Below are positions 16,552 to 48,677 of a stretch of DNA of 64,000 nt, piece by piece. The notes under the pieces were generated by a model. It was given only the letters and a program-made list of their open reading frames with translations. It searched no databases and had not been told where the DNA came from. Where the stretch lies: assembly GCA_025449905.1 (NCBI GenBank), contig JANWIN010000008.1:4642-68641 (forward strand), read 5' to 3'. Position 1 is the stretch's first letter, and each line of letters starts with the position of its first letter. Position numbers and translations under genes: made by a program. This DNA is from Candidatus Saccharimonadales bacterium. GTDB taxonomy: Bacteria > Patescibacteriota > Saccharimonadia > Saccharimonadales > JANWIN01.

Positions 16552-16554
16552 CAC

Positions 16555-16583: not shown

Positions 16584-16602
16584 TACGTGTCGTTATCTAT
16601 TT

Positions 16603-16824: not shown

Positions 16825-16899
16825 ATAATCAGGAATATTAACTAAAGCAGTGTGCCCAGCCCTTCAAGAAGAGCTGGGTCCGTACAAAGGATTTCTTTA

Positions 16900-17016
16900 G
16901 TGAAAGTACGTGCTAGTGTCAAAAAAATTAGTCCCGATGACAAAATTGTCCGCCGTAAGGGCCGTCTTTATGTTGTTAACAAGCAAAAACCTAAGCACAA
17001 GCAAAGGCAAGGTTAA
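16900..17016 (+). CDS. rpmJ: 50S ribosomal protein L36 (bL36), Cys-free form
   Basis: Hand-translated from GTG 16900 as [38 protein letters not shown]. Not in the ORF track (38 aa). Confidence 0.9.
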
Positions 17017-17019
17017 TTC

Positions 17020-17406: not shown

Positions 17407-17414
17407 GGCTTATT

Positions 17415-17876: not shown

Positions 17877-18502
17877 TGGCCCGCGACACAGCATCAATTG
17901 TTAAACGTTCTAGGCGAGAGGGCTATGCCCTTCACCCCAAAGCCCACAAAGCCCTAATTAAGCGCACCGGCCCACCAGGCCAACAGGCTGGCGGTCGCCG
18001 CGGCGGACGGATTAAGTCCAGCCAGTATTCACTGCAATTACGTGAAAAGCAGAAGGTTAAGCGCCTTTACGGTCTGCTAGAACGTCAATTTAGCAAATTA
18101 ATGGTTGAAGCCAGCCGTAGCAAAGGCCGCAGTGGCGAAGTCTTGCTGCAAATGCTGGAACGACGCTTAGATAACGTGGTTTACCGCAGTGGATTTGCTG
18201 TCAGCCGCCAAGCCGCCCGACAATTAGTGACTCACGGTCACTTTACACTTAACGGCCGCCGTGTTGACATCCCATCCATCCGAGTTGACATAAAAGATGA
18301 GATTGCAGTTCGCGCTCGAAGCTTAAAAACTGAATATTTCAAGAAAATTGATGAAGTTAGCCCCGCCAGCCCTAATGATCTGGCCGATTGGTTAAAAGTG
18401 GAACGTAAGAAATTTAATGTCACGGTTATCGGACTGCCCTCACGCGAAGCGGCCGAACCAGATATTAATGAACAATTAATAGTAGAATACTACTCGCGTT
18501 AA
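17876..18502 (+). CDS. rpsD: 30S ribosomal protein S4 (uS4)
   Basis: S4 domain, LERRLDNVVYRSGFA. Confidence 0.95.
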   Translation: MARDTASIVKRSRREGYALHPKAHKALIKRTGPPGQQAGGRRGGRIKSSQYSLQLREKQKVKRLYGLLERQFSKLMVEASRSKGRSGEVLLQMLERRLDNVVYRSGFAVSRQAARQLVTHGHFTLNGRRVDIPSIRVDIKDEIAVRARSLKTEYFKKIDEVSPASPNDLADWLKVERKKFNVTVIGLPSREAAEPDINEQLIVEYYSR

Positions 18503-18519
18503 AGGAGGCAAGAGTAAAT

Positions 18520-19452
18520 ATGAGCAAAGTAATTCACACCCCGGGACTGGTCAACATCAAGGACCACTCACCGATTAGCGCGACCTTTACGGTTGAGCCA
18601 CTGCACACTGGCTATGGCATGACACTCGGTAACTCCTTGCGACGTGTTTTGCTGTCCAGCATTGCCGGCGCGGCTATCACTGCGTTTAAGATTGAGGGTA
18701 TTACCCACGAGTTCACTTCGCTACCGGGAGTTAAAGAAGATGTTGTTGACGTTATGCTAAATCTTAAGAGTGTACGTTTTCGCTTGTTTAGTGCCGAGCC
18801 GCAAACTCTGCGCTTAACCAAAAGTGGCAAGGGGGTGGTTACCGCCGGAGATATTACGCTTAACGCCGATGTGGAAGTAGTAAATCCTAAACAGGTTATT
18901 GCTACTTTGGATGATTCTAAAGCCAAGTTGGTGGTTGATGTAGTTGTCGAGACCGGTCGTGGTTACCGCACAATTGACGATAGCTCCAGCAGCAAAGCCA
19001 GCGACATGGTGGCCATTGATGCCGTCTTTAGTCCAGTTAATCGAGTGCGTTACAAGGTAGAAAACACTCGTGTTGGCCAAATGACAGACCTCGACAAGCT
19101 GTTAATTACCATAGATACAGATGGCACGTTAACACCGCGGGAAGCTTTTGAAGAAGCTTCAGCTATTTTAGTTAACCAATACACGGCTCTCGCAGGCCAA
19201 ACCCGCGTTGAAACTACTGAACCTTTAACTAATGAGGGCGCGGCTGGCGATAATGACGAACCGCCGGAGTTAATGACACCAATTGAAGACCTTAACCTGT
19301 CAGCTCGTACCACAAACGCCTTAGTGAATAATGAAATTCACACTTTGAAAGACTTGTTTAGCCTAAGCGACGCTGAACTAAAAGACCTCAAAGGTTTTGG
19401 CAGTAAAGCTCTGGATGAAGTTAAAGAAAAGCTAGCGGAGTTGGAGCTATAA
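18520..19452 (+). CDS. rpoA: DNA-directed RNA polymerase alpha subunit
   Basis: 310 aa with N-terminal and C-terminal domains (LNLSARTTNALVNNEIHTLKDL). Confidence 0.95.
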   Translation: MSKVIHTPGLVNIKDHSPISATFTVEPLHTGYGMTLGNSLRRVLLSSIAGAAITAFKIEGITHEFTSLPGVKEDVVDVMLNLKSVRFRLFSAEPQTLRLTKSGKGVVTAGDITLNADVEVVNPKQVIATLDDSKAKLVVDVVVETGRGYRTIDDSSSSKASDMVAIDAVFSPVNRVRYKVENTRVGQMTDLDKLLITIDTDGTLTPREAFEEASAILVNQYTALAGQTRVETTEPLTNEGAAGDNDEPPELMTPIEDLNLSARTTNALVNNEIHTLKDLFSLSDAELKDLKGFGSKALDEVKEKLAELEL

Positions 19453-19453
19453 G

Positions 19454-19933
19454 ATGCATCGGCACGGATACAGCGGTCGAAAATTTGGACGAGAGACGGA
19501 TCAACGCCGAGCTTTGATTAAAAGCTTAGCCGAGGCGTTGATTATCAACGAGTCCATTGAGACCACCTTGCCAAAGGCCAAAGAGTTAGTGCCTTACATG
19601 GAAAAACTGATAACTAAAGCTAAGAAAGGCCAGCTCGCACAGCGCCGTCAGGTGGTTGTGGGCCTGCAAACTGTTTCCAGTGCTCACAAGCTGGTTGATG
19701 AGATTGCGCCCAAACTCAAAGGCCGGACTAGCGGACACTTAACTATTGAAAAAACGACGTTACGCCGAGGTGACTTGGCACAACTAGCCAGAGTTAGCTT
19801 TGTTGATGATTTAAAGGCTCAGTCGGCTAAAGTATCACCAGAAAATAAGACTCAAGTTGAAAAGCCTAAAGCTAACGTCAAGGCTCCGGTCAAAAAGACA
19901 TCAGCAAAGCCTAAAGTGGAGGCCAAGAAATGA
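19454..19933 (+). CDS. rplQ: 50S ribosomal protein L17 (bL17) with K-rich C-terminal tail
   Basis: MHRHGYSGRKFGRETDQRRAL... core plus ~40-aa tail. Confidence 0.94.
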   Translation: MHRHGYSGRKFGRETDQRRALIKSLAEALIINESIETTLPKAKELVPYMEKLITKAKKGQLAQRRQVVVGLQTVSSAHKLVDEIAPKLKGRTSGHLTIEKTTLRRGDLAQLARVSFVDDLKAQSAKVSPENKTQVEKPKANVKAPVKKTSAKPKVEAKK

Positions 19934-20370
19934 AGACTTTTAGCCTAAAACCAGCCGATGTGAAGCGCAGGTGGTATGAACTTGATGCCGCGGAAACAAC
20001 CCTTGGTCGCTTGTCGGTCGGCGCAGCCAAATTGCTAATTGGCAAATCAAAACCGGAGTATTCACCGCACGTAGATAACGGCGACTACGTAGTTATAACG
20101 AACGCCGCTAAGCTTAAAGTTACTAGCGATAAGCTGCTCAAAAAAACTTATTACCGACACAGCGGCTACCCTGGTAACTTGCGAAGCAAAACCTTAGCTG
20201 AAAAAATGGATGAATCACCTAGTGAAGTTGTTAGACTAGCTATTCGCGGCATGCTGCCAGTAAATAAGCTTCGCGATGGAAGGCTTGCCCGGCTTAAGAT
20301 CTACGACGGTCCAGAGCATGAAAACACTGCTCAAAAGCCTGAAAAGATTACTATCAAGGAGCTCAAATGA
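19930..20370 (+). CDS. rplM: 50S ribosomal protein L13 (uL13)
   Basis: uL13-like sequence (RWYELDA..., YYRHSGYPG). Confidence 0.95.
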   Translation: MKTFSLKPADVKRRWYELDAAETTLGRLSVGAAKLLIGKSKPEYSPHVDNGDYVVITNAAKLKVTSDKLLKKTYYRHSGYPGNLRSKTLAEKMDESPSEVVRLAIRGMLPVNKLRDGRLARLKIYDGPEHENTAQKPEKITIKELK

Positions 20371-20544: not shown

Positions 20545-20940
20545 ATGGCTGCTAATTATACCTATGCTTTAGGCCGACGTAAAAGTGCTACTGCCAGGGT
20601 CCGTCTGACTCGCGGTAAGGGTCAGGTTACGATTAATGGTAAACCCGCAGAAGAATATGTAAAGAACAGCAAATACCTCTTAAAAGTGCTACAAGAGCCG
20701 TTCACTGCAATTGAGCAGAACAATAATTATGATGTTAGTGCTAAGGTAACCGGTGGCGGAACCAGCGGTCAGATTGATGCTATTCGTCTAGGAATTGCCA
20801 AAGCTCTTGCGACTTCTAATGACGATCTGCGCAGTACTTTACGCCGTGCTGAACTACTTGGCCGCGATCCGCGCGAGAAGGAACGAAAGAAATTCGGCCT
20901 CAAAGGCGCTCGTAAGAAACGACAATTCACCAAGAGGTAG
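20545..20940 (+). CDS. rpsI: 30S ribosomal protein S9 (uS9)
   Basis: MAANYTYALGRRKSATARVRL...KKRQFTKR. The ORF-track start 20524 is trimmed to ATG 20545. Confidence 0.95.
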   Translation: MAANYTYALGRRKSATARVRLTRGKGQVTINGKPAEEYVKNSKYLLKVLQEPFTAIEQNNNYDVSAKVTGGGTSGQIDAIRLGIAKALATSNDDLRSTLRRAELLGRDPREKERKKFGLKGARKKRQFTKR

Positions 20941-20944
20941 ATCC

Positions 20945-22078
20945 ATGGTCTTAGACACCCAAACAGCACTGGAATATTACTGGGCGCTAGATTCAATGTC
21001 AGCCGAAGTGTTTGCTTCAAGAATGGATGCTGCCGGCCAATCTCGGCGTTTAGAAGCTATCTATTCTCCTCTTGGCGAAATCGCAATTGATGATACCGTA
21101 GGCATGAGTCGGGATCGAATTGGCGCCATCTTTAGAGGCGAATCCAAAGAAAAGCTAATTGCCTTTGGACCTTGTTCGGATGGAAATGAACAGGATTTAC
21201 CGGTGCAATTAGATGAACTGTTTGATTTCATCGAAAAACTTCAAGAAACTTATCCAGGTGCACTTTTTGCAGTCAGGCTAAACGGCGCCAAACCTCGTAC
21301 CGGCCCCGACTGGACAGGCTCGTACTATAGCCTTAACCCTAACTCCAGAATGCACCTCATTGAACACTATATATCTGCAGCCAACCGAGGCATTCCTGCT
21401 CTTAGTGAAATAACACAAGAATCACAACTTGGCTTATTGGCACCATACCTAAGTGCTGCGTGGCTTGGAGCAAGAGATATGCAATCAACCACTCTGCGAA
21501 CTGCCCTTTCGGCTTATCATTTGCCAGCAGGTGTCAAAAATAGCATAAGCGGCCAGCCAAAGACCGTAGAAGATGCCGTCAGAACTATTAGAAGCAATTC
21601 TAAGGATAGAGGTAATACGGGTGTAGAACTTACTATTGCTGGACATATGGCGGATGTACCGCTGCCAGTTGGGCAAGGCAATAAAGACGTTGCAATTTTT
21701 GCTAGAGGACATGAGCTACGTAAAGGTACTTTAGCCGAGGAGGGACGAGCACTTGCCTTAGAGCATCTAGGTATAATGTGCACATTAGGTGTAGAGTTGG
21801 GTGCGACAGTCATTATTGATGGCTCACATGACGTACCAAAAATGTTTAACTTAGCTACGAGCGAGGGAAAAAAAGACCCTGACCGATTAGTCCCTGTTTT
21901 GCGTGAAATCCATAGAGGAATTGAAGAAGAAAGAGTAGAGAATGCTAGTCAGATTGGGGGTCTGATAGGCGAGGTTGGGCCTGACGTAGGCGACACAGAC
22001 CCAAACTTTATCTTGGACGAGGCGCATAAAGAACAGCTAATGAAAGTCGTTGACGAGTTCCTTAACCTAGAAATATAG
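20945..22078 (+). CDS. divergent class-I DAHP synthase family protein
   Basis: By-eye alignment to AroG-type landmarks: FGPCS, GAKPRTGPDWTG, AAWLGARDMQS, LPAGVKNSISG, VIIDGSHD. ATG 20945 lies 4 nt after the rpsI stop; the ORF-track start 20795 would overlap rpsI. Confidence 0.55.
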   Translation: MVLDTQTALEYYWALDSMSAEVFASRMDAAGQSRRLEAIYSPLGEIAIDDTVGMSRDRIGAIFRGESKEKLIAFGPCSDGNEQDLPVQLDELFDFIEKLQETYPGALFAVRLNGAKPRTGPDWTGSYYSLNPNSRMHLIEHYISAANRGIPALSEITQESQLGLLAPYLSAAWLGARDMQSTTLRTALSAYHLPAGVKNSISGQPKTVEDAVRTIRSNSKDRGNTGVELTIAGHMADVPLPVGQGNKDVAIFARGHELRKGTLAEEGRALALEHLGIMCTLGVELGATVIIDGSHDVPKMFNLATSEGKKDPDRLVPVLREIHRGIEEERVENASQIGGLIGEVGPDVGDTDPNFILDEAHKEQLMKVVDEFLNLEI

Positions 22079-22081
22079 ACG

Positions 22082-22237
22082 TTGACAAAGTTATTATTTG
22101 TAGTATATTAGTTTTTATGTCTAAAATGACAATCAACAATTCATTTTGGTTTACCGACACAACTCGTGGCGGTTTATTCCGTATGTTCTAAGATTGTCTA
22201 AAACCTATCGAAGAAGCCGCCACCAAGGCGGTTTTTT
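22082..22237 (+). promoter_or_regulatory. candidate leader-peptide attenuator upstream of the 72-aa ORF and trpS
   Basis: TTGACA (22082-87), 16-nt spacer, TATATT (22104-09), 7 nt, then a 24-codon ORF 22117-22191 (MSKMTINNSFWFTDTTRGGLFRMF). GTGGCGGTTT (22166-75) can pair with AAGCCGCCAC (22214-23), which overlaps the terminator. Confidence 0.5.
22216..22237 (+). terminator. intrinsic terminator
   Basis: GCCGCC / accaa / GGCGG(T) stem-loop followed by T6. Confidence 0.6.
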
Positions 22238-22274
22238 AATAATTTAAGTAATAATTTAAGAAAGGAATATAACA

Positions 22275-22493: not shown

Positions 22494-22508
22494 GATATAA
22501 TTACAACA

Positions 22509-23768
22509 ATGAGTAAACCGGTAATACTTACAGGTCTTAGAGCTAATAACGACCTCCACCTAGGTAATTATTTGGGGGCCTTGCTACCTATGGTTGACAT
22601 GGCTAACAAACAAGCTGGCGAGCATCAAATTAATCTGTTCGTACCTGATTTACACAGCTTTACGACACCAATCGACCATTCTAAGCTTTACCAGCAAAGC
22701 ATTGATAATGTGAAAGTCTTTGTAGCTACCGGACTTCATATCGGACACGAAAATGTACACATATACCGTCAAAGTTTTATTCCAGCCCATTCGGAGCTGG
22801 CTATCATCCTTAATAGCTTTGTGGGCGTTGGTGAAATGGAGAGAATGACACAATACAAAGAAAAGATAGCAAGTTCAGTTGAAAAAGAAAGAGAGTTCGC
22901 TAAACACCTAGAGGAGCTATTCAGAAAAAATATAAATGAAAATAACGAGGTAAATGATGCAGTGGAAAGGATGACACAGTATAAGAAAAGAATTAAAATA
23001 AATGAAAAAAAATACTTAAGCCAACAAAAATATATGCAAAGTCTATCTGACATTGTTTTAGAAACAGAAAAAGGTGACATTTTCAACATTGAAGTCAAAT
23101 CAAAAAAAGATATTGGACCATCGGTAGGCCTTTTTGATTATCCTGTGTTGATGGCGGCTGATATTCTGCTTTATGGCGCCTCATATGTGCCCGTTGGCGA
23201 TGATCAGACTCAGCATCTAGAATTTACCCGCAATATAGCTGAGCGAATGAATAAAAAGTTTGGCGAGCTGTTTGTTGTGCCAAACCCTGTTGCTGAGCAG
23301 CACAAATTCTTTGGAAAAGACCAAGGTTTGCGCATTCGCGACCTTCTAGATCCAAATAAAAAGATGAGCAAATCCGACGACACCGGCAAAGGTGTGATTT
23401 TCTTAAGTGACAAGCCCGAAGAAGCAGCAAAAAAAGTAATGTCAGCTACTACGGATAGCCTTAATAAAATTGCACTGGATTTTGAGAAGCAACCTGGAGT
23501 TAGTAATTTATTGCAAATACATGCCTTGCTTTCTGGCGAAACTCTAGACGCCGTCACTAAACATCACGGTGGGGAAACAAACTACAGCGACCTTAAAAAA
23601 GAGGTGGCAGAACAAGTTAAAGAGTTCTTAAATGACTTCCAGGCAAAACTTTCAGCTGTAAACGAGCACGAAGTTATCAAAAAGCTGGAAGCCAGCGAAG
23701 CTGAAATGAATAGACAAGCCAACGAGACCCTAGCCAAGGTTCAAAAAGCCGTAGGCCTGCGCAAATAA
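22509..23768 (+). CDS. trpS: tryptophan--tRNA ligase with a large internal insertion
   Basis: Class I HIGH-type motif (NDLHLGNYLG), KMSKS (NKKMSKSD), YPVLMAADIL. 419 aa, with a ~80-aa K/E/N-rich insert. Confidence 0.9.
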   Translation: MSKPVILTGLRANNDLHLGNYLGALLPMVDMANKQAGEHQINLFVPDLHSFTTPIDHSKLYQQSIDNVKVFVATGLHIGHENVHIYRQSFIPAHSELAIILNSFVGVGEMERMTQYKEKIASSVEKEREFAKHLEELFRKNINENNEVNDAVERMTQYKKRIKINEKKYLSQQKYMQSLSDIVLETEKGDIFNIEVKSKKDIGPSVGLFDYPVLMAADILLYGASYVPVGDDQTQHLEFTRNIAERMNKKFGELFVVPNPVAEQHKFFGKDQGLRIRDLLDPNKKMSKSDDTGKGVIFLSDKPEEAAKKVMSATTDSLNKIALDFEKQPGVSNLLQIHALLSGETLDAVTKHHGGETNYSDLKKEVAEQVKEFLNDFQAKLSAVNEHEVIKKLEASEAEMNRQANETLAKVQKAVGLRK

Positions 23769-25546: not shown

Positions 25547-25582
25547 CAGGGGTGATTTGTGGGTTTGCTATAATGAAGTTGC

Positions 25583-26236
25583 ATGTTAGAACTTGCATTA
25601 GTCTTAGGCTTTGGAGCGCTGGCAGTCAGAAGCGCCAAAGTACGAGAAGATGAACTATCCCCATTGCCACGCCGTCTGAGTGACCGTATGGGCAAGCTTT
25701 GGGATATCGCCCATCAGGGCATGCGCGATAATCGGTTTTTGCGAGCTGAAAAAGCCCTTCTAACTATCCTAAAGATTGATCAAAAAAACGCAGCTGCTTA
25801 TAACCGTCTAGGCATTCTATATGCCAAACAAAAAGAATATCGAGACGCGATTGACTGTTTTGAGATAGCTTCCAGCATAGAGGCTACGCCATCGAGCCTC
25901 CATAACCTTGGCTTAATTTATTATGAAACCGAGAATTACGATAAGGCGGCTGTGGCCTTCGAGCAGGCCTTGAAGCTAGAGGATGACCTAGCCGCCAGGC
26001 ACGTGGCTTACGCCAAAGTTCAGGAAAAATTGGGTAACCATAAAATTATGCTGCAAGAGCTAGAGAAGGCGGTTGAACTAGAACCCAACCATGAAACTTT
26101 TAATTTACTTAAAAAGGCTTACGAGAACTTGGGACTTACTGAAGAGGCCAAAGCCGTTGAAAAACGGGTTGATAAAATGATTGTAACTTCAGGTAAGCGT
26201 AAGCGTATGCTTAGGCCGCGTCGAGTTGTAATCTGA
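25583..26236 (+). CDS. TPR repeat protein
   Basis: Repeated AxxYxxLGxxYxxxxxYxxAxxxFxxAL pattern; N-terminal hydrophobic segment. Confidence 0.8.
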   Translation: MLELALVLGFGALAVRSAKVREDELSPLPRRLSDRMGKLWDIAHQGMRDNRFLRAEKALLTILKIDQKNAAAYNRLGILYAKQKEYRDAIDCFEIASSIEATPSSLHNLGLIYYETENYDKAAVAFEQALKLEDDLAARHVAYAKVQEKLGNHKIMLQELEKAVELEPNHETFNLLKKAYENLGLTEEAKAVEKRVDKMIVTSGKRKRMLRPRRVVI

Positions 26237-26268: not shown

Positions 26269-26344
26269 GCCGACGTAGCTCAGTGGCTAGAGCGGCTGTT
26301 TTGTAAACAGCGGGTCGTGGGTTCGAATCCCTCCGTCGGCTCCA
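26269..26344 (+). tRNA. tRNA-Thr (anticodon UGU)
   Basis: Cloverleaf folded by eye; acceptor gccgacg/cgtcggc; anticodon loop TTTGTAA; CCA encoded; one T-stem mismatch. Confidence 0.85.
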
Positions 26345-26348
26345 TATT

Positions 26349-26434
26349 GCAGGGTTAGTGAAGCGGTCAAACACGGCAGACTGTAAATCTGTTGGCATTC
26401 GCCTTCGTAGGTTCGAATCCTACACCCTGCACCA
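26349..26434 (+). tRNA. tRNA-Tyr (anticodon GUA)
   Basis: Acceptor gcagggt/accctgc; anticodon loop CTGTAAA; long variable arm; CCA encoded. Confidence 0.85.
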
Positions 26435-26500
26435 ATTTAGTGGTAAATCGAGCACTTGCAGACTAAGCACTCCGGACTATTGTAATTCCGTAAATTTTTA

Positions 26501-26968
26501 TTATTCCGACTTATTCCTTCGATACCAAGGTTTTTGCGTCAGTGCATAATTTTGAACGCAAGTATCCTCACTACTAGCTATCCACCCGATATGAGAATTC
26601 TCATATAGGAAAAAATATCGCTCCTCTTCGCCCAGTTCATCTACAACTTCTTGTCCGAGGTCTTCGGCAACTCCAAAGAAATCCAGAGTTGTTAAACATA
26701 GCCGTCCACATGTTTTAACAGGACATTGATTTACTTGAACAGGAATTTCACCGTTCCCATTAGAGGACTCTTGGGCTAAATCAGTTTCATTGGAATGTGA
26801 TGCGATGTAATCATCTATCGCAATAGGGAATAAAAAGGAATTGAAAGCATTTCCATCTACATAATTTAGTAATTCAAGTAAACAAGTAGGAGGTCTATCT
26901 GCCTCTAATTGACTTCCTGCTGCATCAGCGAATTTATCATGTAAATCGACAAATTCTTTAAATTCCAT
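26501..26968 (-). CDS. hypothetical protein (155 aa), possibly SMI1/KNR4 (SUKH)-like
   Basis: AT-rich ORF. Weak resemblance only (LLELLNYVDGNAF..., ...FFLYENSHIGWIASS); not verified. Confidence 0.35.
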   Translation of the reverse strand: MEFKEFVDLHDKFADAAGSQLEADRPPTCLLELLNYVDGNAFNSFLFPIAIDDYIASHSNETDLAQESSNGNGEIPVQVNQCPVKTCGRLCLTTLDFFGVAEDLGQEVVDELGEEERYFFLYENSHIGWIASSEDTCVQNYALTQKPWYRRNKSE

Positions 26969-27099
26969 ACCACATTAATAACATTAAGGTGACGATTAGT
27001 CAATAATATCACCTGCACTTCAGATGTATCGAAAAGTGTTTTCAGTTTAACGGACGTAGCTAAAAGATTCCTACGACACCAATCACGCTAAACCAAAAA

Positions 27100-27128
27100 T
27101 TGACACAGTAGTAATCCAGTATTATAAT
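27100..27128 (+). promoter_or_regulatory. consensus sigma70 promoter
   Basis: TTGACA (27100-05), 17-nt spacer, TATAAT (27123-28). The ATG of the next gene is 9 nt after the -10 box, with no SD. Confidence 0.6.
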
Positions 27129-27137
27129 AGGTTTATT

Positions 27138-27548
27138 ATGGCAAACGAAACTTTATCGCCAATGACTGACGAAGTAGCGCATTTGCGTCAGCAGCTTGCT
27201 GATACTCTAACTCATTTAGAAGAGCATCCAGAAGATGATAGTTCACTTTCTTTGTCACTATATGACTTAAGGAAAGAGGTTAGACACTATGATGCGGTTG
27301 TAAGCGGAGAAATAAGCTCCTTTCAAGTAGACTCACTTGCTGATATCCCTAAAGTACTAGTAGACGTGCGCCGGGCACGACACATGAGCCGAGTAGAGTT
27401 ATCGCAAGCGTGGGGTCTCTCAGAAGAGAATCGTCAGAGGCTTCTTGCTGATGAAGAGAACTTTTATGCCGGAATGTCTTTAGCGGGAGTTGTTTCTGCC
27501 GCAATAATTCTAGGCGCTGAGCTTAAAGGCGATATAAAGGTAGAGTAG
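27138..27548 (+). CDS. XRE-type helix-turn-helix protein (136 aa)
   Basis: C-terminal half RRARHMSRVELSQAWGLSEENRQRLLADEEN fits an HTH_XRE pattern. Confidence 0.5.
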   Translation: MANETLSPMTDEVAHLRQQLADTLTHLEEHPEDDSSLSLSLYDLRKEVRHYDAVVSGEISSFQVDSLADIPKVLVDVRRARHMSRVELSQAWGLSEENRQRLLADEENFYAGMSLAGVVSAAIILGAELKGDIKVE

Positions 27549-27630
27549 CTAAGTAGAAAAGTTTCAACTTGTTAGATAACGCTGCACCAAAATTTACCGA
27601 CTTGATCTAAAGTGCTATAGTTAAAAATAG

Positions 27631-27960
27631 ATGGGGGAAACAAAAACTGGCTCAACTGCTTACTTAGCGTACGAAAGAGGTCCATTTACGGTTCGTGTTA
27701 ATGCAGACTCCTGGCGAGCTGAAGAGGATGCCTATCTTTATCTACGTGGACATAATTTTTTTGGTGAAACTTTTCGTAGGCAATATGAAGCTACACTCCC
27801 ATTAGTTATAATTAGACCCCTCACTACTGAGGAGGTGCATATTAGTGGTAATGGCCAAGAGACAAAACTCATTTCTCACCTATTAAACCGAACGCCTGAA
27901 AGGCTAACAGATGCTACGCCAACTCAAGCTGTTCATCTTGGGCAGCTTAGCCTTATTTAA
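27631..27960 (+). CDS. hypothetical protein (109 aa)
   Basis: ORF track only; follows the HTH gene. Confidence 0.4.
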   Translation: MGETKTGSTAYLAYERGPFTVRVNADSWRAEEDAYLYLRGHNFFGETFRRQYEATLPLVIIRPLTTEEVHISGNGQETKLISHLLNRTPERLTDATPTQAVHLGQLSLI

Positions 27961-27977
27961 AGTTAAAAATTATCTCT

Positions 27978-27986
27978 TGATATAAT
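27978..27986 (+). promoter_or_regulatory. extended -10 promoter for tRNA-Thr(GGU)
   Basis: TGaTATAAT, 9 nt upstream of the tRNA 5' end. Confidence 0.45.
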
Positions 27987-27995
27987 TTCATAGGT

Positions 27996-28070
27996 GCCGT
28001 CGTAGCTCAGTGGTAGAGCACCTCCATGGTAAGGAGGGGGTCACGAGTTCAACTCTCGTCGACGGCTCCA
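27996..28070 (+). tRNA. tRNA-Thr (anticodon GGU)
   Basis: Acceptor gccgtcg/cgacggc; anticodon loop ATGGTAA; CCA encoded. Confidence 0.88.
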
Positions 28071-28118
28071 CACTTACTTATTGCATAAACAGCTCACCTC
28101 TGTTAAACTTACAATCTA

Positions 28119-28322
28119 ATGAAATACCTGCAAAAGTCTAATAAGAATAAGAAATGGGCTGGTGTTTGCGGCGGCTTTGCTGAGTATTTTGAAATAGATC
28201 CTACACTAGTCAGAGCCATTTATATCTTTATAACCATAGTTACCGGTATAATTCCCGGTTTGCTGGCATACTTTGTGCTTGCTTGGATAATGCCATCTCA
28301 GGGACAAGCTAAAAATGGCTAA
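28119..28322 (+). CDS. PspC-domain small membrane protein
   Basis: KWAGVCGGFAEYFEIDPTLVRAIYIF... is a typical PspC domain; overlaps the rpmG start by 8 nt. Confidence 0.8.
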   Translation: MKYLQKSNKNKKWAGVCGGFAEYFEIDPTLVRAIYIFITIVTGIIPGLLAYFVLAWIMPSQGQAKNG

Positions 28323-28515
28323 GACAAGCAAGCGTAAAATTGTGGGATTGGTAAGTGAAGCTAGCGGCCACCGCAGTTATTACACGACTAAAAACCCGCA
28401 AAATGTCACTGAGAAACTCAAGCTGCGGAAGTATGACCCAATTGTTAGGAAACATGTGTTCTATGTTGAGACCAAGAAAAACTTAGGCCGCAACGAAGTA
28501 AAACCAAAGAAATAA
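28315..28515 (+). CDS. rpmG: 50S ribosomal protein L33 (bL33), Cys-free form
   Basis: ...SYYTTKNPQNVTEKLKLRKYDPIVRKHVFYVETK; the CxxC pairs are replaced. Confidence 0.88.
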   Translation: MAKTSKRKIVGLVSEASGHRSYYTTKNPQNVTEKLKLRKYDPIVRKHVFYVETKKNLGRNEVKPKK

Positions 28516-28545
28516 GCTTAAACATACTGTAATATAGGTTGTGTT

Positions 28546-28622
28546 AGGGGTGTAGCTCAGTTGGCTAGAGCGACGGTCTCCAAAACCGTAGGTCGGGGGT
28601 TCAAGTCCCTCCACCCCTGCCA
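28546..28622 (+). tRNA. tRNA-Trp (anticodon CCA)
   Basis: Acceptor aggggtg/cacccct; anticodon loop CTCCAAA; CCA encoded. Confidence 0.88.
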
Positions 28623-31349: not shown

Positions 31350-31392
31350 GTCTTGACTGTAATTTTCTATCTGTTATATACTTGATTCAGCG

Positions 31393-31419
31393 AAACCTGT
31401 CTGTATGATAGGTTTTTTT
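31393..31419 (+). terminator. intrinsic terminator after the histidine kinase
   Basis: AAACCT / 11-nt loop / AGGTTT followed by a T-run. Promoter-like TTGACT-N16-TATATA (31353-80) sits just upstream, so its role is ambiguous. Confidence 0.45.
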
Positions 31420-31469
31420 AATTCACCTGCCTAAAATTTCGAAGAAACTTTAGTAGGTTAAGGAGTTAG

Positions 31470-33472: not shown

Positions 33473-34387
33473 ATGGCGGAAACCAAAAAAACAGCTGAGA
33501 AAACTGAAGAAAAACCAAAAACTGTCAAGAATAAAGTAGAAACTAAACCTGCTGCTGAAGAAAAGGTAGTGGCGAAGGCTGGCAAACGCAGCGCCAAAGC
33601 CATTAAAGAGTCTGAAGAGAAAGTAGCTAAAGAAGAGCGTAAAGCAGTAAAAGCTAGTGACAAAGAAGCTGATAAGCCTAAGAAACCTGTCAAGCCGGCC
33701 CGTAGCCGGTTGGAGCGTCGTAGTAAAAAGTACCGTGAAAGCGCAAAGCTTATAGATAAAACTAAGCAATACGCACTTAAAGATTCACTTGAGCTAGCTA
33801 TAAAAACATCTACAGTTAAGTTTGATGCATCAGTTGAGATGCATGTTCGTTTAGGCGTAGATCCAAAGACGGCTGATCAGAACATTCGTGACACCGTTAC
33901 CTTACCAGCCGGTACCGGTAAGGATGTCAAAATAGCAGTTTTTACAGATGAACCTGCCGATAAGATAAAGCAAGCTGGCGCTGACATCGTCGGCAATGAA
34001 GATTTTCTGGCTCAACTGGAGAAAGAAAACCTAAACTTTGACGTTTTAATAACCTCACCGCAAATGATGGCTAAATTAGCTAAATATGCGCGTATTTTAG
34101 GTCCGCGAGGTCTTATGCCCAATCCAAAAAGCGGCACAGTGGCAAAAGATTTAACAGCAGCAGTAAAAGGCGCCAAAGGCGGCCGCGTAGAATACCGAGT
34201 AGATAGTGAAGGCATAATCCACTTGGCTATTGGTAAGGTTAGCTTTGGGCCTGAAAAACTCCAGCAAAACGCCGAGGCTATAGTCAAAAGTATAAAAGCT
34301 GCTAAACCCAGCTCTATCAAAGGCATTTACATTCAGTCTACATATATTACAACCAGCATGGGACCAAGCATTAAAGTCGAGCTATAA
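33473..34387 (+). CDS. rplA: 50S ribosomal protein L1 (uL1) with ~80-aa K/E-rich N-terminal extension
   Basis: uL1 core from RSKKYRESAKLID...; SD aaggag; 304 aa. Confidence 0.93.
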   Translation: MAETKKTAEKTEEKPKTVKNKVETKPAAEEKVVAKAGKRSAKAIKESEEKVAKEERKAVKASDKEADKPKKPVKPARSRLERRSKKYRESAKLIDKTKQYALKDSLELAIKTSTVKFDASVEMHVRLGVDPKTADQNIRDTVTLPAGTGKDVKIAVFTDEPADKIKQAGADIVGNEDFLAQLEKENLNFDVLITSPQMMAKLAKYARILGPRGLMPNPKSGTVAKDLTAAVKGAKGGRVEYRVDSEGIIHLAIGKVSFGPEKLQQNAEAIVKSIKAAKPSSIKGIYIQSTYITTSMGPSIKVEL

Positions 34388-34394
34388 TAGCGAG

Positions 34395-35036
34395 GTGAGT
34401 CAAAAACAAGGTCGAGTTATTGCCTTTGACGGACCGGATGGTGTTGGTAAAAGCAGCCAATTAAAACTTTTGGCCAACTACTTATTAGGAAAGGGCTATA
34501 AGGTATTTAAAACCCGCTCGGCCGGCGGAACGCCAATAGGTGTAGCTTTAAGGGCTGCTTCGCTTTTAAACGTTCCGCGCCAACCAGAAACTGATCTTTA
34601 TATTTCCTTAGCCGGTCAAACTGATGTTGGCTACCAAATTAAGAACCGTAAAAGTACAGGCGAGATTATTCTAGTGGACCGTAGCCCTTTAACAATTATT
34701 GCCTATCAAGTTTTTGCCAGTAATCTACCAATACCAAAACAGGGCTACGACGCCTGTGAAAAAATGTTAAAGTTATGGAGTATTGACGACCTAATAGTTT
34801 TTGATGCTCCAGAGTCTATACTTAAGGGCCGCCGCGACAAGCGAAAGCAGGAAGATAAATCAGCTGCCAACAACTATTTTGAACGGCAAAACGACAATTA
34901 TCACAAGCAAACCCAAGCTGGTTACCGTGAAGCGACTAAATTTGCTCAAAAACTTGGTGTTAATACTGTCAAGATTGATGCTTCGCCTACGATTGATATA
35001 ATTCAGGATGACATCCGAAATAAGCTGGGACTTTAG
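34395..35036 (+). CDS. tmk: thymidylate kinase (paralog 1)
   Basis: VIAFDGPDGVGKSSQ P-loop, DRSPLTIIAYQ; GTG start. Confidence 0.8.
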   Translation: MSQKQGRVIAFDGPDGVGKSSQLKLLANYLLGKGYKVFKTRSAGGTPIGVALRAASLLNVPRQPETDLYISLAGQTDVGYQIKNRKSTGEIILVDRSPLTIIAYQVFASNLPIPKQGYDACEKMLKLWSIDDLIVFDAPESILKGRRDKRKQEDKSAANNYFERQNDNYHKQTQAGYREATKFAQKLGVNTVKIDASPTIDIIQDDIRNKLGL

Positions 35037-38351: not shown

Positions 38352-38422
38352 AAACTAATACTACACCGAATTTTTAAGAACGCAAGCAATAGTTTTTGAA
38401 TATTGTATTTTTCAGTCAAGAG

Positions 38423-38574
38423 TGATAACCTCTAAATCACTATGGGTTTTAACCAGAAGCACTCTTCGAGTCTCCTACTTATCCTTCAAGGGCTGTGCTT
38501 CAAATTGGTTGAAGCCTGAGCGTACAGATACGTTTTGCACAGCCCCACAATCAGGCCTCAACGCCTGATTTTTT
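38423..38574 (+). promoter_or_regulatory. Leu-rich leader peptide attenuator candidate
   Basis: TGaTAACCT (38423-31). ORF 38442-38519 MGFNQKHSSSLLLILQGLCFKLVEA. Alternative pairings 38490-98/38537-45 and 38514-19/38551-56, then a terminator. Confidence 0.6.
38551..38574 (+). terminator. intrinsic terminator 17 nt upstream of the leuA-family start
   Basis: TCAGGC / ctcaac / GCCTGA followed by T6. Confidence 0.7.
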
Positions 38575-38591
38575 AATTTAAGGAGAACTAA

Positions 38592-39761
38592 ATGAGTGAA
38601 GTTAATCTAACAATTTTTGATACAACCTTGCGTGATGGAGCACAATCGTTGCCTGAGCAAAATCAGTTTCCGAAAGGAACAAAGGCTGATATTGCCGGTG
38701 AAATAGCTGCTTTGGGCATAGGTGTCATAGAAGCAGGATTCCCTAGAACAGTTGGCGATGCAGACGAAGTACGTATGGTGTCTAAGCTAGTGGGTAACAA
38801 TGAATATGCTATTTCTGAATGGCGCAATAACCACGCTGTTGGCAAGGTAGGCGCTACCCCAACTATTGCGGGGCTTTGCCGAACAACCCGCAGGGACATT
38901 GATGTGGCCTGGGAGGCTGTACAGGATGCTATATTCCCGCGAATTCACACATTCGTGTCGACAGATAGAGAGCACATGGCAGCAAAATTTCCGGGCAAAA
39001 CACCAGAAGAAGTACACCTAATGGGTCGAGATGCAGTTATGCACGCCAAATCATTGATGATTGACAGGCCCCAAGCAACAGTGGAATTTTCGGCAGAGGC
39101 GGCTAGTACCACAGAAGAAAAATACTTAGAAGGAGTAATGAAGTCAGCTGTTGATGAAGGAGCTGATGTAATTAATGTACCCGACACCGTTGGCCAGCGT
39201 AATCCATTCTGGATGCGTGATTTCTATAGTCGAGTAATTGATTGGGTAGTAAGGGCAAATCCTGATGTAACAATTTCAGCTCATAACCACAACGATCTAG
39301 CTATGGCAACTGCCAATAGTTTTAGCTTGGTTAGTGCAGCTGCCGAATACGCCAAAATACAAGCTAAGCCAATAAATATTCAAATAGAAACTACTATTTC
39401 TGGTCTGGGTGAACGAGCTGGGAATGCTGATGTCTTCTCAGTTGCAGCCAGTATTTTTAAATTTGCCGAAGATCTCCCAGTTGATATTTATTGGCGTTTT
39501 AACCCTGAAAGATCTGTAAAAACCGCCAATCGCGTACTAAGTATGGCTGGTATCGAGGTCCACAGGCAAGCTCCGGTTGTTGGCCGAGATACGCTAGTAC
39601 ACCGTTCTGGAATTCATAGTGATGGTGTCATAAAAGGGGGTCATCGTATATACACCCCCCATGACCCAACCTTCTGGGGCCAAGGCGCCGATGCTATACA
39701 CGAAGAAGGTAGGTATCAGGGTAAGAGTGGACGAGCAGCCATTGCCCGAACATCCCAATAG
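38592..39761 (+). CDS. short 2-isopropylmalate / citramalate / homocitrate synthase family protein (HMGL-like)
   Basis: DTTLRDGAQS, HNHNDLAMATANS, GLGERAGNADV, HRSGIHSDGVIK. 389 aa with no LeuA C-terminal regulatory domain; strong SD aaggag. Confidence 0.8.
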   Translation: MSEVNLTIFDTTLRDGAQSLPEQNQFPKGTKADIAGEIAALGIGVIEAGFPRTVGDADEVRMVSKLVGNNEYAISEWRNNHAVGKVGATPTIAGLCRTTRRDIDVAWEAVQDAIFPRIHTFVSTDREHMAAKFPGKTPEEVHLMGRDAVMHAKSLMIDRPQATVEFSAEAASTTEEKYLEGVMKSAVDEGADVINVPDTVGQRNPFWMRDFYSRVIDWVVRANPDVTISAHNHNDLAMATANSFSLVSAAAEYAKIQAKPINIQIETTISGLGERAGNADVFSVAASIFKFAEDLPVDIYWRFNPERSVKTANRVLSMAGIEVHRQAPVVGRDTLVHRSGIHSDGVIKGGHRIYTPHDPTFWGQGADAIHEEGRYQGKSGRAAIARTSQ

Positions 39762-39762: not shown

Positions 39763-39897
39763 TTGACATACCCCTATAGATATTTAAAATACTATCTATG
39801 GCTCAAACAACAATTATTAAAATTATTCGAGATTCCGTCTAGCGCGGTAGAGCTTTTATTTGTCAACAAACAGCTCCGCGCAGGGGCTGTTTTAAAT
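39763..39897 (+). promoter_or_regulatory. Thr/Ile-rich leader peptide attenuator candidate
   Basis: TTGACA (39763-68), 16-nt spacer, TAAAAT (39785-90), 7 nt, then ORF 39798-39842 MAQTTIIKIIRDSV. Mutually exclusive hairpins 39842-81 and 39868-92. Confidence 0.5.
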
Positions 39898-42211: not shown

Positions 42212-42258
42212 TTTCTACAATCTAATTTCAAATATCATTCGTCTATAATTGATAGGGC

Positions 42259-43665
42259 ATGAGTCAGGCTTTATACCGTAAATATCGATCTAAGAAGTTT
42301 AGCGAGGTTGTTGGACAGCAGCATATCACTCGGACACTAAGTAATGCTATTAAAAGTGGGCGAGTTAACCATGCCTATTTATTTACCGGTCCGCGTGGCG
42401 TTGGCAAGACTAGTGTGGCGCGTATTTTAGCTCACGAAGTTAACAATATTAAGTATGACGAAACCAAAACGTATCTCGACATCATTGAAATTGACGCCGC
42501 AAGTAATCGACGTATTGACGAGATACGTGACCTGCGCGAAAAAGTCCATATTGCCCCAACTTCTGCCAAATATAAGGTCTACATTATTGACGAAGTCCAC
42601 ATGCTTACTAAAGAAGCTTTTAACGCACTCCTTAAAACCCTGGAAGAACCACCGGGCCACGTTATTTTTATTCTGGCCACAACCGAAGCCCATAAACTGC
42701 CAGAGACCATTGTCAGCCGCACCCAGCGCTTTAGTTTTAAGCCAATTAGTAAAAGCGACGCAATAAAGCATCTCAAAGAGATTGCTAAAACAGAAGGTGT
42801 AAAGATCGATGATGAAGCTGTTGAACTACTAGCCAGCCACGGAGCAGGGAGTTTTCGTGACAGTATTAGCCTACTCGACCAAGTCAGTACCGGCGGTGAT
42901 GTAAAAGTTGACGATGTAAGAAAAATGCTAGGGATTGCACCAGCTGAGGCGATTGAGGCAATAGGCACAACTGTAGATTCTGGCACCCCAGAGCAGCTAC
43001 TTGGTAAATTAGAAGAGATTCGCCTCAAAGGCTATCATCCGCCAACAATCGCCAAGCAGTTAAGCGCTTATTATAGAAGCAGGCTTATTAATGACCAAGC
43101 CGATAGACAAGAAGTTATTAGTCTTCTAAAAAAACTCTTAGCCGTACCGGCTAGCCAAGACCCAGACCAGTTACTGGAGCTGATTTTACTGGATAAATTA
43201 CTGCAATCCGCACTAACAGCCACTCCAGTAGAAAAAACACCGGAAAACAATGTCAAAATCGAACCTGACAAGCCGACGGCCGAGGTAAAACCAGAACCAG
43301 TAAAAGCCAGCCGTAAGAGTGAAAGTGCTTGGGATAAAATTCTGGAGGCTCTAAAAGACCAACATAATACGCTATACAGCACATTGCGTATGGCTAAGGC
43401 TGAATTCAGCGGCAAGCAAGTGCTGAAGCTGACATTTAATTTTGCTTTTCATAAAAAACGTCTAGATGAAGCCAAAAACCTCGAAATATTAGCGGCTACC
43501 GCTAAACAAATTGTGGGTAAGCCGGTTAAAATTATTACTGTTGTAGAAACCGGTGGCATCCCTTTGAAGTCATCTGATAAACCGACTGTGGACGGTACTG
43601 TGGAGAACGGCGAACTACAAACCATTAGCAATATATTCGGCGATGCTGAAGTGCTAGACTCCTAA
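42259..43665 (+). CDS. dnaX: DNA polymerase III subunit gamma/tau
   Basis: FTGPRGVGKTS Walker A, IIDEVHML, LLKTLEEPP, SRTQRF. Confidence 0.93.
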   Translation: MSQALYRKYRSKKFSEVVGQQHITRTLSNAIKSGRVNHAYLFTGPRGVGKTSVARILAHEVNNIKYDETKTYLDIIEIDAASNRRIDEIRDLREKVHIAPTSAKYKVYIIDEVHMLTKEAFNALLKTLEEPPGHVIFILATTEAHKLPETIVSRTQRFSFKPISKSDAIKHLKEIAKTEGVKIDDEAVELLASHGAGSFRDSISLLDQVSTGGDVKVDDVRKMLGIAPAEAIEAIGTTVDSGTPEQLLGKLEEIRLKGYHPPTIAKQLSAYYRSRLINDQADRQEVISLLKKLLAVPASQDPDQLLELILLDKLLQSALTATPVEKTPENNVKIEPDKPTAEVKPEPVKASRKSESAWDKILEALKDQHNTLYSTLRMAKAEFSGKQVLKLTFNFAFHKKRLDEAKNLEILAATAKQIVGKPVKIITVVETGGIPLKSSDKPTVDGTVENGELQTISNIFGDAEVLDS

Positions 43666-47651: not shown

Positions 47652-47669
47652 TCCGTTATAATAGAGAAA

Positions 47670-48677
47670 ATGAGCAAATACCCGGAAGCTGAGCAAATTC
47701 AGACTATTTTAGATGGTGCTAAGACTATTGTAGTTATGCAGGCCGATAATCCAGATGGCGACAGCTTGGCGAGTAGCTTGGCACTGGAGCAAATCCTGGG
47801 TGACGCGGGCAAAGAAATCGTACTTTACTGCGGCGTTGATATTCCTTCGTATCTAACTTATTTGAAGGGCTGGGATAGAGTCACCAAGGATCTGCCAACA
47901 AATTTCGATTTAAGTATTGTAGTGGATGTCAGTGCTATTAGTTTGTTTGAGAACCTGCAGAAATCCGGTCAGCTGGGTTGGGTAGCCTCCAAGCCTTCAA
48001 TTATCATCGACCATCACGCTGTTGACGTCAGCATTCTTTTTGCTACTGTCATCTGTAATAAGCCGGCCGTAGCTACCGGCGAGGTTATATATGAACTGGC
48101 ACAGCAGCTAAAATGGCCCTTGAATGAGCAGGCTAAAAATATGCTGTCAATTTCGATTTTATCGGATAGTCTGGGCTTAATTAGCGAGGGTACAACGGCC
48201 CGCAGTATTCACATTATTGCAGAGCTTGTAGAAAGCGGCGTTAAGCTGGCGGAACTGGAAAATGCTCGCCGGGAAATGATGCGCAAATCCATCGAGCTAA
48301 TTCGTTACAAAGGCAAGCTGCTAGAGCGAATTGAGTACTTTAACGATAACCGCATAGCCGTAGTAACCATCCCATGGGAAGAAATTGAAAAATACAGCCA
48401 TGCCTATAATCCTTCAATGCTGGTTATTGACGATATGCGCCTAACCGAAGGCACCGACGTAGCGATTGCTTTTAAGCTGTACCGTGACGGCAAGGTTACG
48501 GCTAAAATACGCACCAACTATGGCAAGAATATTGCCGGTGACCTGGCCGCTCATTTTGGCGGCGGCGGCCACCCTTACGCCAGCGGTTTTAAGATAACTA
48601 GCGGCAAGAAATTTGATGAAGTTAAAAACGAAACGATTGAAGTAGCTGCTAAATTACTTGCTAAACTAGACGGGTAA
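47670..48677 (+). CDS. nrnA: DHH/DHHA1 phosphoesterase (NrnA-like)
   Basis: DNPDGDSLAS, IIIDHHAVD, GGGGHPYASGF. Confidence 0.85.
   Translation: MSKYPEAEQIQTILDGAKTIVVMQADNPDGDSLASSLALEQILGDAGKEIVLYCGVDIPSYLTYLKGWDRVTKDLPTNFDLSIVVDVSAISLFENLQKSGQLGWVASKPSIIIDHHAVDVSILFATVICNKPAVATGEVIYELAQQLKWPLNEQAKNMLSISILSDSLGLISEGTTARSIHIIAELVESGVKLAELENARREMMRKSIELIRYKGKLLERIEYFNDNRIAVVTIPWEEIEKYSHAYNPSMLVIDDMRLTEGTDVAIAFKLYRDGKVTAKIRTNYGKNIAGDLAAHFGGGGHPYASGFKITSGKKFDEVKNETIEVAAKLLAKLDG

Follow-up and report, generated by a model that had tools for sequence, protein, structure and literature searches.

Introduction

Enterobacterial leader peptides are translated from a Shine-Dalgarno (SD) site behind a 5′ untranslated region of about 25 nucleotides (nt), and the trp, leu and ilv attenuators combine regulatory codons with the alternative pairings 1:2, 2:3 and 3:4 and an intrinsic terminator. 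Another arrangement is found in Corynebacterium, where the leaders of ilvB/ilvBNC, leuA and trpE consist of a short open reading frame (ORF), rich in the regulatory residues and placed at the transcription start, followed by alternative hairpins and the structural genes. Transcription of the ilvB leader of C. diphtheriae (MNIIRLVVITTRRLP) starts on the start codon (PMC5784534), and a three-hairpin model of a leaderless mRNA has been discussed for the ilvBNC attenuator of C. glutamicum (PMC11857589). Here we describe a similar layout in a window of 64,000 nt from a Candidatus Saccharimonadales bacterium of the Saccharibacteria (TM7; GenBank assembly GCA_025449905.1, contig JANWIN010000008.1, positions 4,642 to 68,641 of the forward strand; coordinates below are those of the window). 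The window holds three candidate leaderless attenuator leaders, which we call Trp, Leu and Ile leaders after their codons, and a fourth promoter-proximal start codon that opens a putative regulator gene, ORF 27138.

Two further bodies of work bear on this locus. In mycobacteria, Cys-responsive (polycysteine) leaderless short ORFs (LL-sORFs) act as attenuators and form a ‘ribulon’, in which stalling on the leaderless short ORF controls the operon (bioRxiv 10.1101/834739; PMC4633059); there, a 5′-terminal ATG or GTG is both necessary and sufficient to initiate leaderless translation, and TTG is ineffective (PMC4633059). In genomes assigned by GeneMarkS-2 to its group C, the first genes of operons start 6-8 nt from a Pribnow box, and internal genes have SD sites; the groups rich in such genomes that the main text of that study names are Actinobacteria and Deinococcus-Thermus, and Saccharibacteria are not mentioned in that main text (PMC6028130). 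Our full-text literature search returned no report of leaderless mRNA or of leader-peptide attenuation in Saccharibacteria, Patescibacteria or the Candidate Phyla Radiation, so that leaderless attenuators are apparently undescribed so far in this phylum. To our knowledge, gene regulation in the Candidate Phyla Radiation as a whole is almost unstudied.

Results

Start codons without Shine-Dalgarno sites follow promoters at a short distance

A first-pass annotation of the window had pointed to four ATG codons that follow the −10 box of a strong promoter by 7 to 10 nt, with no SD site. We found the layout at all four places (Table 1), and the ends of the −10 boxes at 22109 and 39790, as well as the perfect consensus promoter at 27100, had been given correctly. 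Only part of the description stood for the site at 38442: the ATG is present, but the promoter, for which no hexamers had been named, is weak, its best candidate being TTGTAT-N17-TGa-TAACCT. None of the tetramers GGAG, GAGG and AGGA occurs between the −10 box and the ATG at any of the four sites, and an AGG at 27129-27131 would lie upstream of any transcript start from the 27100 promoter. The SD sites with which these starts had been contrasted are real (aaggag before 38592 and before 33473). All four ATGs stand where transcription from these promoters would be expected to begin.

To describe this layout in numbers, we defined the gap as the nt between the end of the −10 box and the start codon, a strict promoter as TTGACA-N16-18-TAnnnT, and a start as an ATG or GTG at gap 6-10 that opens at least 10 codons. 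The window contains only six promoter matches of at least 11/12, all on the + strand, and three of the six have an ATG at gap 7-9. Three sites combine a promoter of at least 11/12 with an ATG that lies at gap 6-10 and opens 10 codons or more, compared to a mean of 0.05 in 300 dinucleotide-preserving shuffles of the 64-kb window, none of which reached 3. At a threshold of at least 10/12 the corresponding values were 4 in the window and 0.55 in the shuffles, and again 0/300 shuffles reached the observed count. The excess of loose promoter matches was mild (46 versus 35.9 ± 5.6 in shuffles).

The same comparison was made across species. Our comparison set consisted of 80 species-level genomes, mostly Candidatus Saccharibacteria/Saccharimonadales, whose NusG is 88-94% identical to the NusG of the window, and the window was pooled with the 80 related loci anchored on this gene to give 1.3 Mb of diverged orthologous neighbourhoods. 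In the pooled neighbourhoods, 35 of 95 strict promoters had an ATG or GTG at gap 6-10, as against a mean of 8.4 (range 5-14) in 16 control windows. Enrichment over a composition-matched background, which the first-pass annotation had proposed as the means of judging the pattern, was thus observed with shuffles and with control offsets alike. A scan for mini-ORFs that used the −10 box alone gave no visible peak, the signal being lost among chance mini-ORFs; a −35 box or a terminator is therefore required.

Three of the starts open conserved leader peptides

Three of the four sites had been put forward as the mini-ORFs of attenuator candidates, and these mini-ORFs are conserved as attenuator leader peptides, with motifs kept in 21 Leu, 18 Ile and 14 Trp leaders. 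For the Leu and Ile leaders the motifs can be written LLLxL and IIxII. In about 60 homologous leaders from other species the start codon lies 6-10 nt past the −10 box, mostly 6-8, which is the usual spacing between a −10 box and a transcription start. Only ATG and GTG serve as start codons across the leader families, with no TTG, and the four starts of the window are all ATG. The base at position −1 of the start is a pyrimidine in 43/49 leaders, compared to 47.5% before ATG or GTG generally. Bacterial transcription start sites show a preference for Y(−1)R(+1); the pyrimidine at −1 fits this preference and supports a transcription start at the start codon.

In aligned orthologous leaders the −35 and −10 hexamers and their spacing of 16-18 nt are kept, the spacer sequence itself being scrambled, and the intergenic DNA around the leaders is only 57-68% identical. 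The frame of the mini-ORF and the position of its stop codon relative to the antiterminator are also kept in about 60 leaders. A match between cargo and leader amino acid was seen in part of the cases: Trp leaders lie upstream of trpS, the Leu leader of the window upstream of an isopropylmalate-synthase-like gene, and some Ile leaders of relatives upstream of ridA-ilvA. The first ORF past the Trp and Ile leaders of the window, and past many Leu leaders, encodes a small protein without assigned function. Across loci L002-L078, many Leu, Ile and Trp leaders are followed first by a short SD-led ORF of 60-150 amino acids (aa) that by eye looks unrelated between species; the leaders are stable and the cargo downstream of them is highly variable.

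Rfam at gathering thresholds matched only tRNAs and the L10 leader in the whole window, and none of the three leaders. Permissive Rfam scans of the leaders gave chance-level matches only, the best being Phe_leader at 16.4 bits (gathering threshold 55) and freshwater-2 at 19.2 bits (49.9), and no riboswitch, T-box or other Rfam family matched any of the three. A T-box upstream of trpS was considered and rejected, since none was found by the Rfam scan and the leader is also too short for one.

Each leader is predicted to adopt alternative RNA structures

The Trp leader is followed in the window by a small SD-led ORF and then by trpS. The motif [FY]-W-[FYK] is kept in 14 leaders upstream of trpS, mostly beyond an intervening small ORF, and one of these leaders has WW. 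Counterparts of the window leader were found at L046:1300, L047:262 and 11 metagenomic loci, in each case with a homologous TTGACA-N17 promoter; a second comparison set of 80 metagenomic trpS loci had been gathered by a TrpRS scan. All 14 Trp leaders have a strong promoter, an ATG start (14/14) at gap 6-10 (gap 7 in 9/14) and a terminator. When the ribosome was modelled as a mask at the Trp codon, the antiterminator, at −20.7 kcal/mol, was predicted to be the minimum-energy fold, ahead of the terminator at −15.6 kcal/mol. The antiterminator has its 5′ arm inside the leader ORF, 17 nt past the Trp codon, where a ribosome bound at the stop codon would be expected to cover or melt it. Between rpsI and the Trp leader, the window carries a DAHP-synthase-like gene (20939-22078; Pfam DAHP_synth_1, E 1e-11; NCBIfam far below cut-off) that is absent from related loci, where rpsI stands directly before the leader or before trpS.

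The Leu leader carries a branched-chain, mostly Leu, run that is kept in 21 orthologous leaders, in which CTC, CTT, CTA and TTG swap synonymously. Its cargo protein matches Pfam HMGL-like (E 1.5e-43) and scores at most 240 bits with the NCBIfam 2-isopropylmalate synthase models, below their cut-offs. The weak promoter of the window aligns column for column with the TTGTCA/TTGACA-N16-17-TAnnnT promoters (TTGTCA-N17-TAnAAT type) of seven orthologous leaders, and T24, A25 and T29 are invariant in the alignment. The automatic best-promoter pick for the window leader was a different, non-homologous hexamer pair, and the orthologue alignment was preferred. In 18 Leu leaders found by their RNA core alone, with the promoter ignored, an in-frame ATG or GTG lies 6-10 nt past the best promoter in 16-17/18; among the 15 obtained from the promoter scan, gaps are 6-8 in 14, and the starts are 12 ATG and 3 GTG.

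Folding of the Leu leader predicts −33.1 kcal/mol without a ribosome, when the 1:2 hairpin is formed, and −17.1 kcal/mol for the 2:3 pairing with a ribosome stalled at the Leu codons, as compared to −11.1 kcal/mol for the terminator. Over 21 species, 90.9% of the cells of the 2:3 helix are paired, versus 13-45% in slid controls; five pairs are changed on both sides, a number reached by 2/500 shuffles.

In several relatives the Leu leader is one member of a divergent pair whose −35 boxes overlap (TTGTCAA; L015:17158/17164, L047:18539/18545, L076:12962/12968, L006:18730/18736 and others). The opposite strand then carries a further leader family, with a GTG 7-8 nt past the −10 box, 22-26 codons ending ..YG[LIV]V[LF][IV].. 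and the antiterminator GGTTGGAG : CTCCAACC; this family has no clear counterpart in the window. In another small leader family (L010:16156, L055:20274, L017:11080), the ATG is at gap 8-10 and the peptides end in ..SKELG. These leaders also have a terminator, and the proteins encoded after them, with about 400 or more aa, have no assigned function.

For the Ile leader, the antiterminator and the terminator are predicted to be of similar energy (−14.5 and −15.2 kcal/mol), and a terminating ribosome would cover the antiterminator because the stop codon (39840-39842) abuts it. Relatives have 18 Ile-rich leaders, with runs such as IIDIII, IIMKII and IIIINSII. Of these leaders, 13 have a gap of 7; the start codon is ATG in 17 and GTG in one. 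TTGACA is invariant across eight aligned orthologous Ile leaders, and the codons ATT, ATC and ATA vary synonymously as the run persists. The cargo consists of ridA and, after it, a threonine-dehydratase-like (ilvA-like) gene at L007, L024, L071 and L074, and in the window and at L042 the small ORF after the Ile leader precedes the L10 leader and rplJ.

The L10 element itself has a TTGACG-N18-TATAAT promoter leading into the ribosomal protein L10 leader (40109-40244; Rfam RF00557, 66.2 bits) ahead of rplJ-rplL. Its RNA reads in relatives as a spurious ‘MPKT...’ ORF with a TTG start and is a useful negative control for mini-ORF calls; all the ‘MPKT...’ pseudo-ORFs, which start with TTG throughout, were rejected as leader peptides. 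We also rejected ‘MELTVLVSSF’ upstream of secE, which is probably RNA too. In the window that region (31353-31425) holds TTGACT-N18-TATACT and, about 10 nt later, a hairpin with a T-run (31392-31423), about 50 nt upstream of secE (31470)/nusG, and a similar element seen as the TTG pseudo-ORF ‘MELTVLVSSF’ lies upstream of secE in L011, L018, L019, L025 and L062. The element is possibly an RNA attenuator acting on the secE-nusG operon.

The fourth site precedes a putative XRE-type regulator gene

ORF 27138 lies between tRNA genes and has the highest coding score in its own frame. The protein gave no match in Pfam (E ≤ 0.01), NCBIfam or PADLOC, and a word-based homologue search found only ORF 27138 itself. 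HMMER retrieved 131 remote relatives (E 4e-8 to 1e-3), aligned to about residues 35-134, and the Pfam domain HTH_3 was present in the aligned stretch of 10/10 top matches scanned. These alignments suggest that the product is most likely a divergent XRE/Cro-CI-type helix-turn-helix regulator. A single-sequence AlphaFold model was unreliable (predicted local distance difference test score 42.6).

The cI mRNA that phage lambda transcribes from PRM encodes a Cro/CI-type repressor and has its AUG at the 5′ end of the transcript. ORF 27138 resembles that gene in being a putative XRE/HTH_3 relative with an ATG 9 nt past a consensus −10 box. Unlike lambda cI, it showed no operator-like repeats around 27100 and no phage context around the ORF, and its transcript may start 3 nt upstream of the ATG. 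The ORF is part of an orphan three-gene island between tRNA genes (26269-28619), together with orf155 on the − strand and orf109 at 27631. orf155 may also start near a promoter (TTGACT-N17-TATTAA, gap 6, ATG 26968), the −10 box lacking the final T. None of the 80 relatives has ORF 27138, orf109, orf155 or the DAHP-synthase-like gene in its NusG-anchored locus.

Ordinary first genes share the geometry

The same distance between −10 box and start codon recurs before genes with longer products (Table 1). Before the first start of ORFs of at least 80 codons, exact TATAAT boxes occur in the pooled set 10, 12, 13 and 11 times at gaps 6, 7, 8 and 9, respectively, compared to 1.26 ± 1.07 per control gap. 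The 202 pooled long-ORF −10 boxes (at least 5/6) carry an extended TGn in 26.7% of cases, versus 5.5% of control −10-like sites, and a weak TTG at the −35 position, which indicates that they are RNA polymerase sites and not ribosome sites. No SD tetramer was found between the −10 box and the start in any of the 202 cases. The genes of the long ribosomal-protein operon (5933-20370), in contrast, nearly all have SD sites. Since these operon genes are SD-led and several ordinary first genes are not, the true contrast is between the first gene of a unit, often leaderless, and the internal gene of an operon, which is SD-led. The group C signature of GeneMarkS-2 is accordingly also seen here, across the 1.3 Mb made up of the window and the orthologous loci.

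In about 30 trpS orthologues, TATAAT with at most one mismatch precedes the ATG by 7-13 nt. Nearly every trpS orthologue of L081-L115, L012, L015, L046 and L047 has such a box in the 30-45 nt upstream of the gene.

Table 1. Promoters, leaders and promoter-proximal gene starts in the window. Fractions give matches to the 12 consensus positions of the two hexamers; gaps are in nt.
Feature	Position	Strand	Description
Trp leader promoter	22082..22109	+	TTGACA-N16-TATATT, 11/12; gap 7 to ATG 22117
Trp leader ORF	22117..22191	+	MSKMTINNSFWFTDTTRGGLFRMF; ATG at gap 7; single Trp codon 22147-22149 between Phe codons
Trp attenuator RNA (predicted)	22166..22238	+	antiterminator GTGGCGGTTT (22166-22175) : AAGCCGCCAC (22214-22223); terminator 22211-22238
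trpS start	22496..22511	+	TATAAT (22496-22501), gap 7, ATG 22509, no SD
TPR-protein gene start	25566..25585	+	TGcTATAAT, gap 8, ATG 25583, no SD
ORF 27138 promoter	27100..27128	+	TTGACA-N17-TATAAT, 12/12, perfect consensus; gap 9 to ATG 27138
ORF 27138	27138..27548	+	136 aa; ATG at gap 9; between tRNA genes
orf109 start	27593..27633	+	TTTACC-N17-TGcTATAGT, gap 9, ATG 27631, no SD
Start of gene at 29406	ATG 29406		TATAGT, gap 9, no SD
tmk start	34383..34397	+	TATAAT, gap 6, GTG 34395, no SD
Leu leader promoter (weak)	38403..38431	+	TTGTAT (38403-38408)-N17-(TGa)TAACCT (38426-38431); gap 10 to ATG 38442
Leu leader ORF	38442..38519	+	MGFNQKHSSSLLLILQGLCFKLVEA; ATG at gap 10; four Leu and one Ile codon at 38472-38486 (LLLIL)
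Leu attenuator RNA (predicted)	38497..38576	+	region 1 GCTTCAA 38497-38503; region 2 GTTGAAGCCTGA 38508-38519, holds the stop codon
Leu attenuator RNA, continued	38551-38562	+	region 3 TCAGGCCTCAAC; terminator 38549-38576, with region 4 as its 3′ arm
Leu leader cargo	38592..39761	+	SD-led, 389 aa; resembles the 2-isopropylmalate synthase catalytic domain
Ile leader promoter	39763..39790	+	TTGACA-N16-TAAAAT, 11/12; gap 7 to ATG 39798
Ile leader ORF	39798..39842	+	MAQTTIIKIIRDSV; ATG at gap 7; Ile codons 39813-39827 (IIKII)
Ile attenuator RNA (predicted)	39842..39897	+	antiterminator GCGCGGTAGAGCT (39842-39854) : AGCTCCGCGC (39872-39881); terminator 39868-39897
dnaX start	42244..42261	+	TATAAT, gap 9, ATG 42259, no SD
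335-aa gene start	47657..47672	+	TATAAT, gap 7, ATG 47670, no SD

Discussion

The reading that we regard as probable is that sigma-70-type promoters here often start transcripts at an AUG or GUG or no more than about 3 nt from it, and that three of the four sites are leaderless attenuator leaders and the fourth an XRE-type gene. A 5′-terminal AUG would allow a ribosome to load as soon as it emerges, with no need for an SD site. If the cognate charged tRNA were scarce, the ribosome would stall at the Trp, Leu or Ile codons and leave the antiterminator free, and RNA polymerase would read through into the SD-led cargo; with ample charged tRNA the ribosome would reach the stop codon, the antiterminator would be covered and the terminator would form. 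In the Leu leader, a stalled ribosome would cover region 1, letting 2:3 form, and a ribosome at the stop codon would cover region 2; with no ribosome, 1:2 would form and the terminator would be free to form. In the Trp and Ile leaders a ribosome at the stop codon would directly cover the 5′ arm of the antiterminator. At 27100-27140, the consensus promoter would produce a leaderless mRNA, or one with a 3-nt leader, for the putative divergent XRE-type repressor-like protein.

Several observations weigh against this reading. The case for leaderless mRNAs is built wholly on sequence geometry and conservation, and the pooled loci are orthologous neighbourhoods, so that their counts are not independent events. 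At gaps of 9-10 (27138 and 38442) the transcript may begin 1-3 nt upstream of the ATG; the favoured start is A 27135 or A 27138 for the former and A 38439 for the latter, and these transcripts would probably have leaders of 0-3 nt and would not be strictly leaderless. The promoter of the Leu leader in the window is weak (6/12 plus TGn), and the cargo of the Ile leader in the window is an uncharacterised 75-aa ORF and not an Ile-pathway gene. The gene upstream of the Trp leader ends at 22078, 4 nt ahead of the −35 box; no terminator separates the two, and read-through transcripts that carry the Trp mini-ORF internally are possible. Some trpS orthologues have GGAG (or GAGG) between TATAAT and ATG, and for this reason a TATAAT near the start does not always exclude SD-led translation. 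This suggests dual expression of trpS, through a leaderless mRNA from the proximal promoter and SD-led translation on attenuator read-through transcripts.

Other explanations of the layout have to be weighed against the leaderless one. The first-pass annotation had gone further and suggested that leaderless initiation is a channel specifically for regulatory and accessory ORFs, with housekeeping genes being SD-led. That all four flagged sites are regulatory or accessory, and that the ribosomal-protein operon genes are nearly all SD-led, would agree with this; nevertheless a TATAAT lies 6-9 nt ahead of the SD-less starts of trpS, tmk, dnaX, the TPR gene and the gene at 47670, the pooled enrichment before long ORFs is about 9-fold and bears the extended −10 signature, and SD use follows position inside operons and not gene category. 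We therefore dropped the specificity part of the claim, and a dedicated channel of this kind seems unlikely. It is also quite improbable, in our estimate, that the promoters are real and the mini-ORFs untranslated, the leaders acting as protein-independent RNA leaders or small RNAs in which the ATG is incidental. The Leu leader is in part (GGGCTGTGCTTC...GTTGAAGCC) conserved as nucleotide sequence, as an RNA structure would be, conserved RNA can look like a conserved peptide, as in the pseudo-ORFs of the L10 leader, and attenuator RNAs can act in trans elsewhere (rnTrpL, PMC6614838). Against this, the runs of Ile, Leu and Trp codons persist through synonymous changes as their flanks diverge, the homologous leaders retain the frame, the ATG/GTG-only start and the placing of the stop codon with respect to the antiterminator, and the enriched amino acid matches the cargo, with no Rfam match to offer another class of RNA.

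Very little probability, in turn, falls to the possibility that the mini-ORFs and ORF 27138 are translated mainly from longer transcripts started upstream, by SD-independent internal initiation, and that the TTGACA/TATAAT boxes are not operative promoters. The terminator-free approach to the Trp leader from the gene ending at 22078 and the trpS orthologues that combine TATAAT with GGAG point in that direction. Conservation of the hexamers and of a 16-18 nt spacer whose sequence is scrambled points the other way, as do the pyrimidine at −1 with the purine at +1 and the fact that these promoters are the best matches in the whole window; attenuation, moreover, requires early ribosome loading, which a 5′-terminal AUG provides. 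That AT-rich intergenic DNA simply yields promoter-like hexamers and ATG codons by chance would account for loose matches being only mildly above shuffles, and yet it is refuted by the shuffles, none of which reached the observed count at either threshold, by the 4-fold excess over control offsets in the pooled set and by the orthologous leaders, which keep the layout; we give it practically no credence.

Leaderless attenuation, as we read the three leaders, would not be a new mechanism, given that leaderless leader-peptide attenuators are known in Actinobacteria. What is new here is the phylum, the three families (Trp, Leu and Ile, none of which matches Rfam) and the cargo. Corynebacterium belongs to a different phylum from Patescibacteria and the Candidate Phyla Radiation, and the likeness is one of layout; transcription starts were mapped there and are read from sequence geometry here. 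Unlike in Corynebacterium, the cargo includes trpS, a truncated isopropylmalate-synthase-like gene and variable small ORFs. The Saccharibacteria group is regarded as broadly auxotrophic. With the mycobacterial LL-sORFs the leaders share the rule that the 5′ start is AUG or GUG and not TTG; they carry Trp, Leu and Ile codons, whereas the mycobacterial LL-sORFs sense Cys, and each ends in a canonical intrinsic terminator, which in contrast to the mycobacterial LL-sORFs points to transcriptional attenuation. The logic is that of the enterobacterial attenuators, of which the Leu leader has the full four regions; the Trp leader differs from them in having one Trp codon and not two, and both the Trp and the Ile leaders are without a 1:2 anti-antiterminator.

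Saccharibacteria are thought to depend on their hosts for amino acids. We put forward tentatively, as an idea somewhat short of an even chance, that the reduced genomes of Saccharibacteria sense host amino acid supply mainly by ribosome stalling on 5′-terminal mini-ORFs, in a sizeable network of leaderless attenuators outside Rfam (Trp, Leu, Ile, ..YG[LIV]V[LF][IV].. and SKELG), with a cargo that is often not a biosynthetic operon: trpS, the truncated isopropylmalate-synthase-like enzyme, ridA-ilvA and fast-evolving small ORFs.

If the leaderless reading is true, frequent leaderless mRNAs would be a trait that Saccharibacteria share with Actinobacteria and Deinococcus-Thermus. Gene-start annotation would be affected in thousands of metagenome-assembled genomes, in which callers that rely on SD sites would put starts in the wrong place and overlook the mini-ORFs. 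The Trp, Leu and Ile leaders would add at least three new attenuator families that can be used as sequence markers, and the leaders would be candidate amino-acid-responsive switches for the emerging genetic systems of the phylum. They would also provide a direct experimental handle on how these epibionts sense amino acids derived from their hosts.

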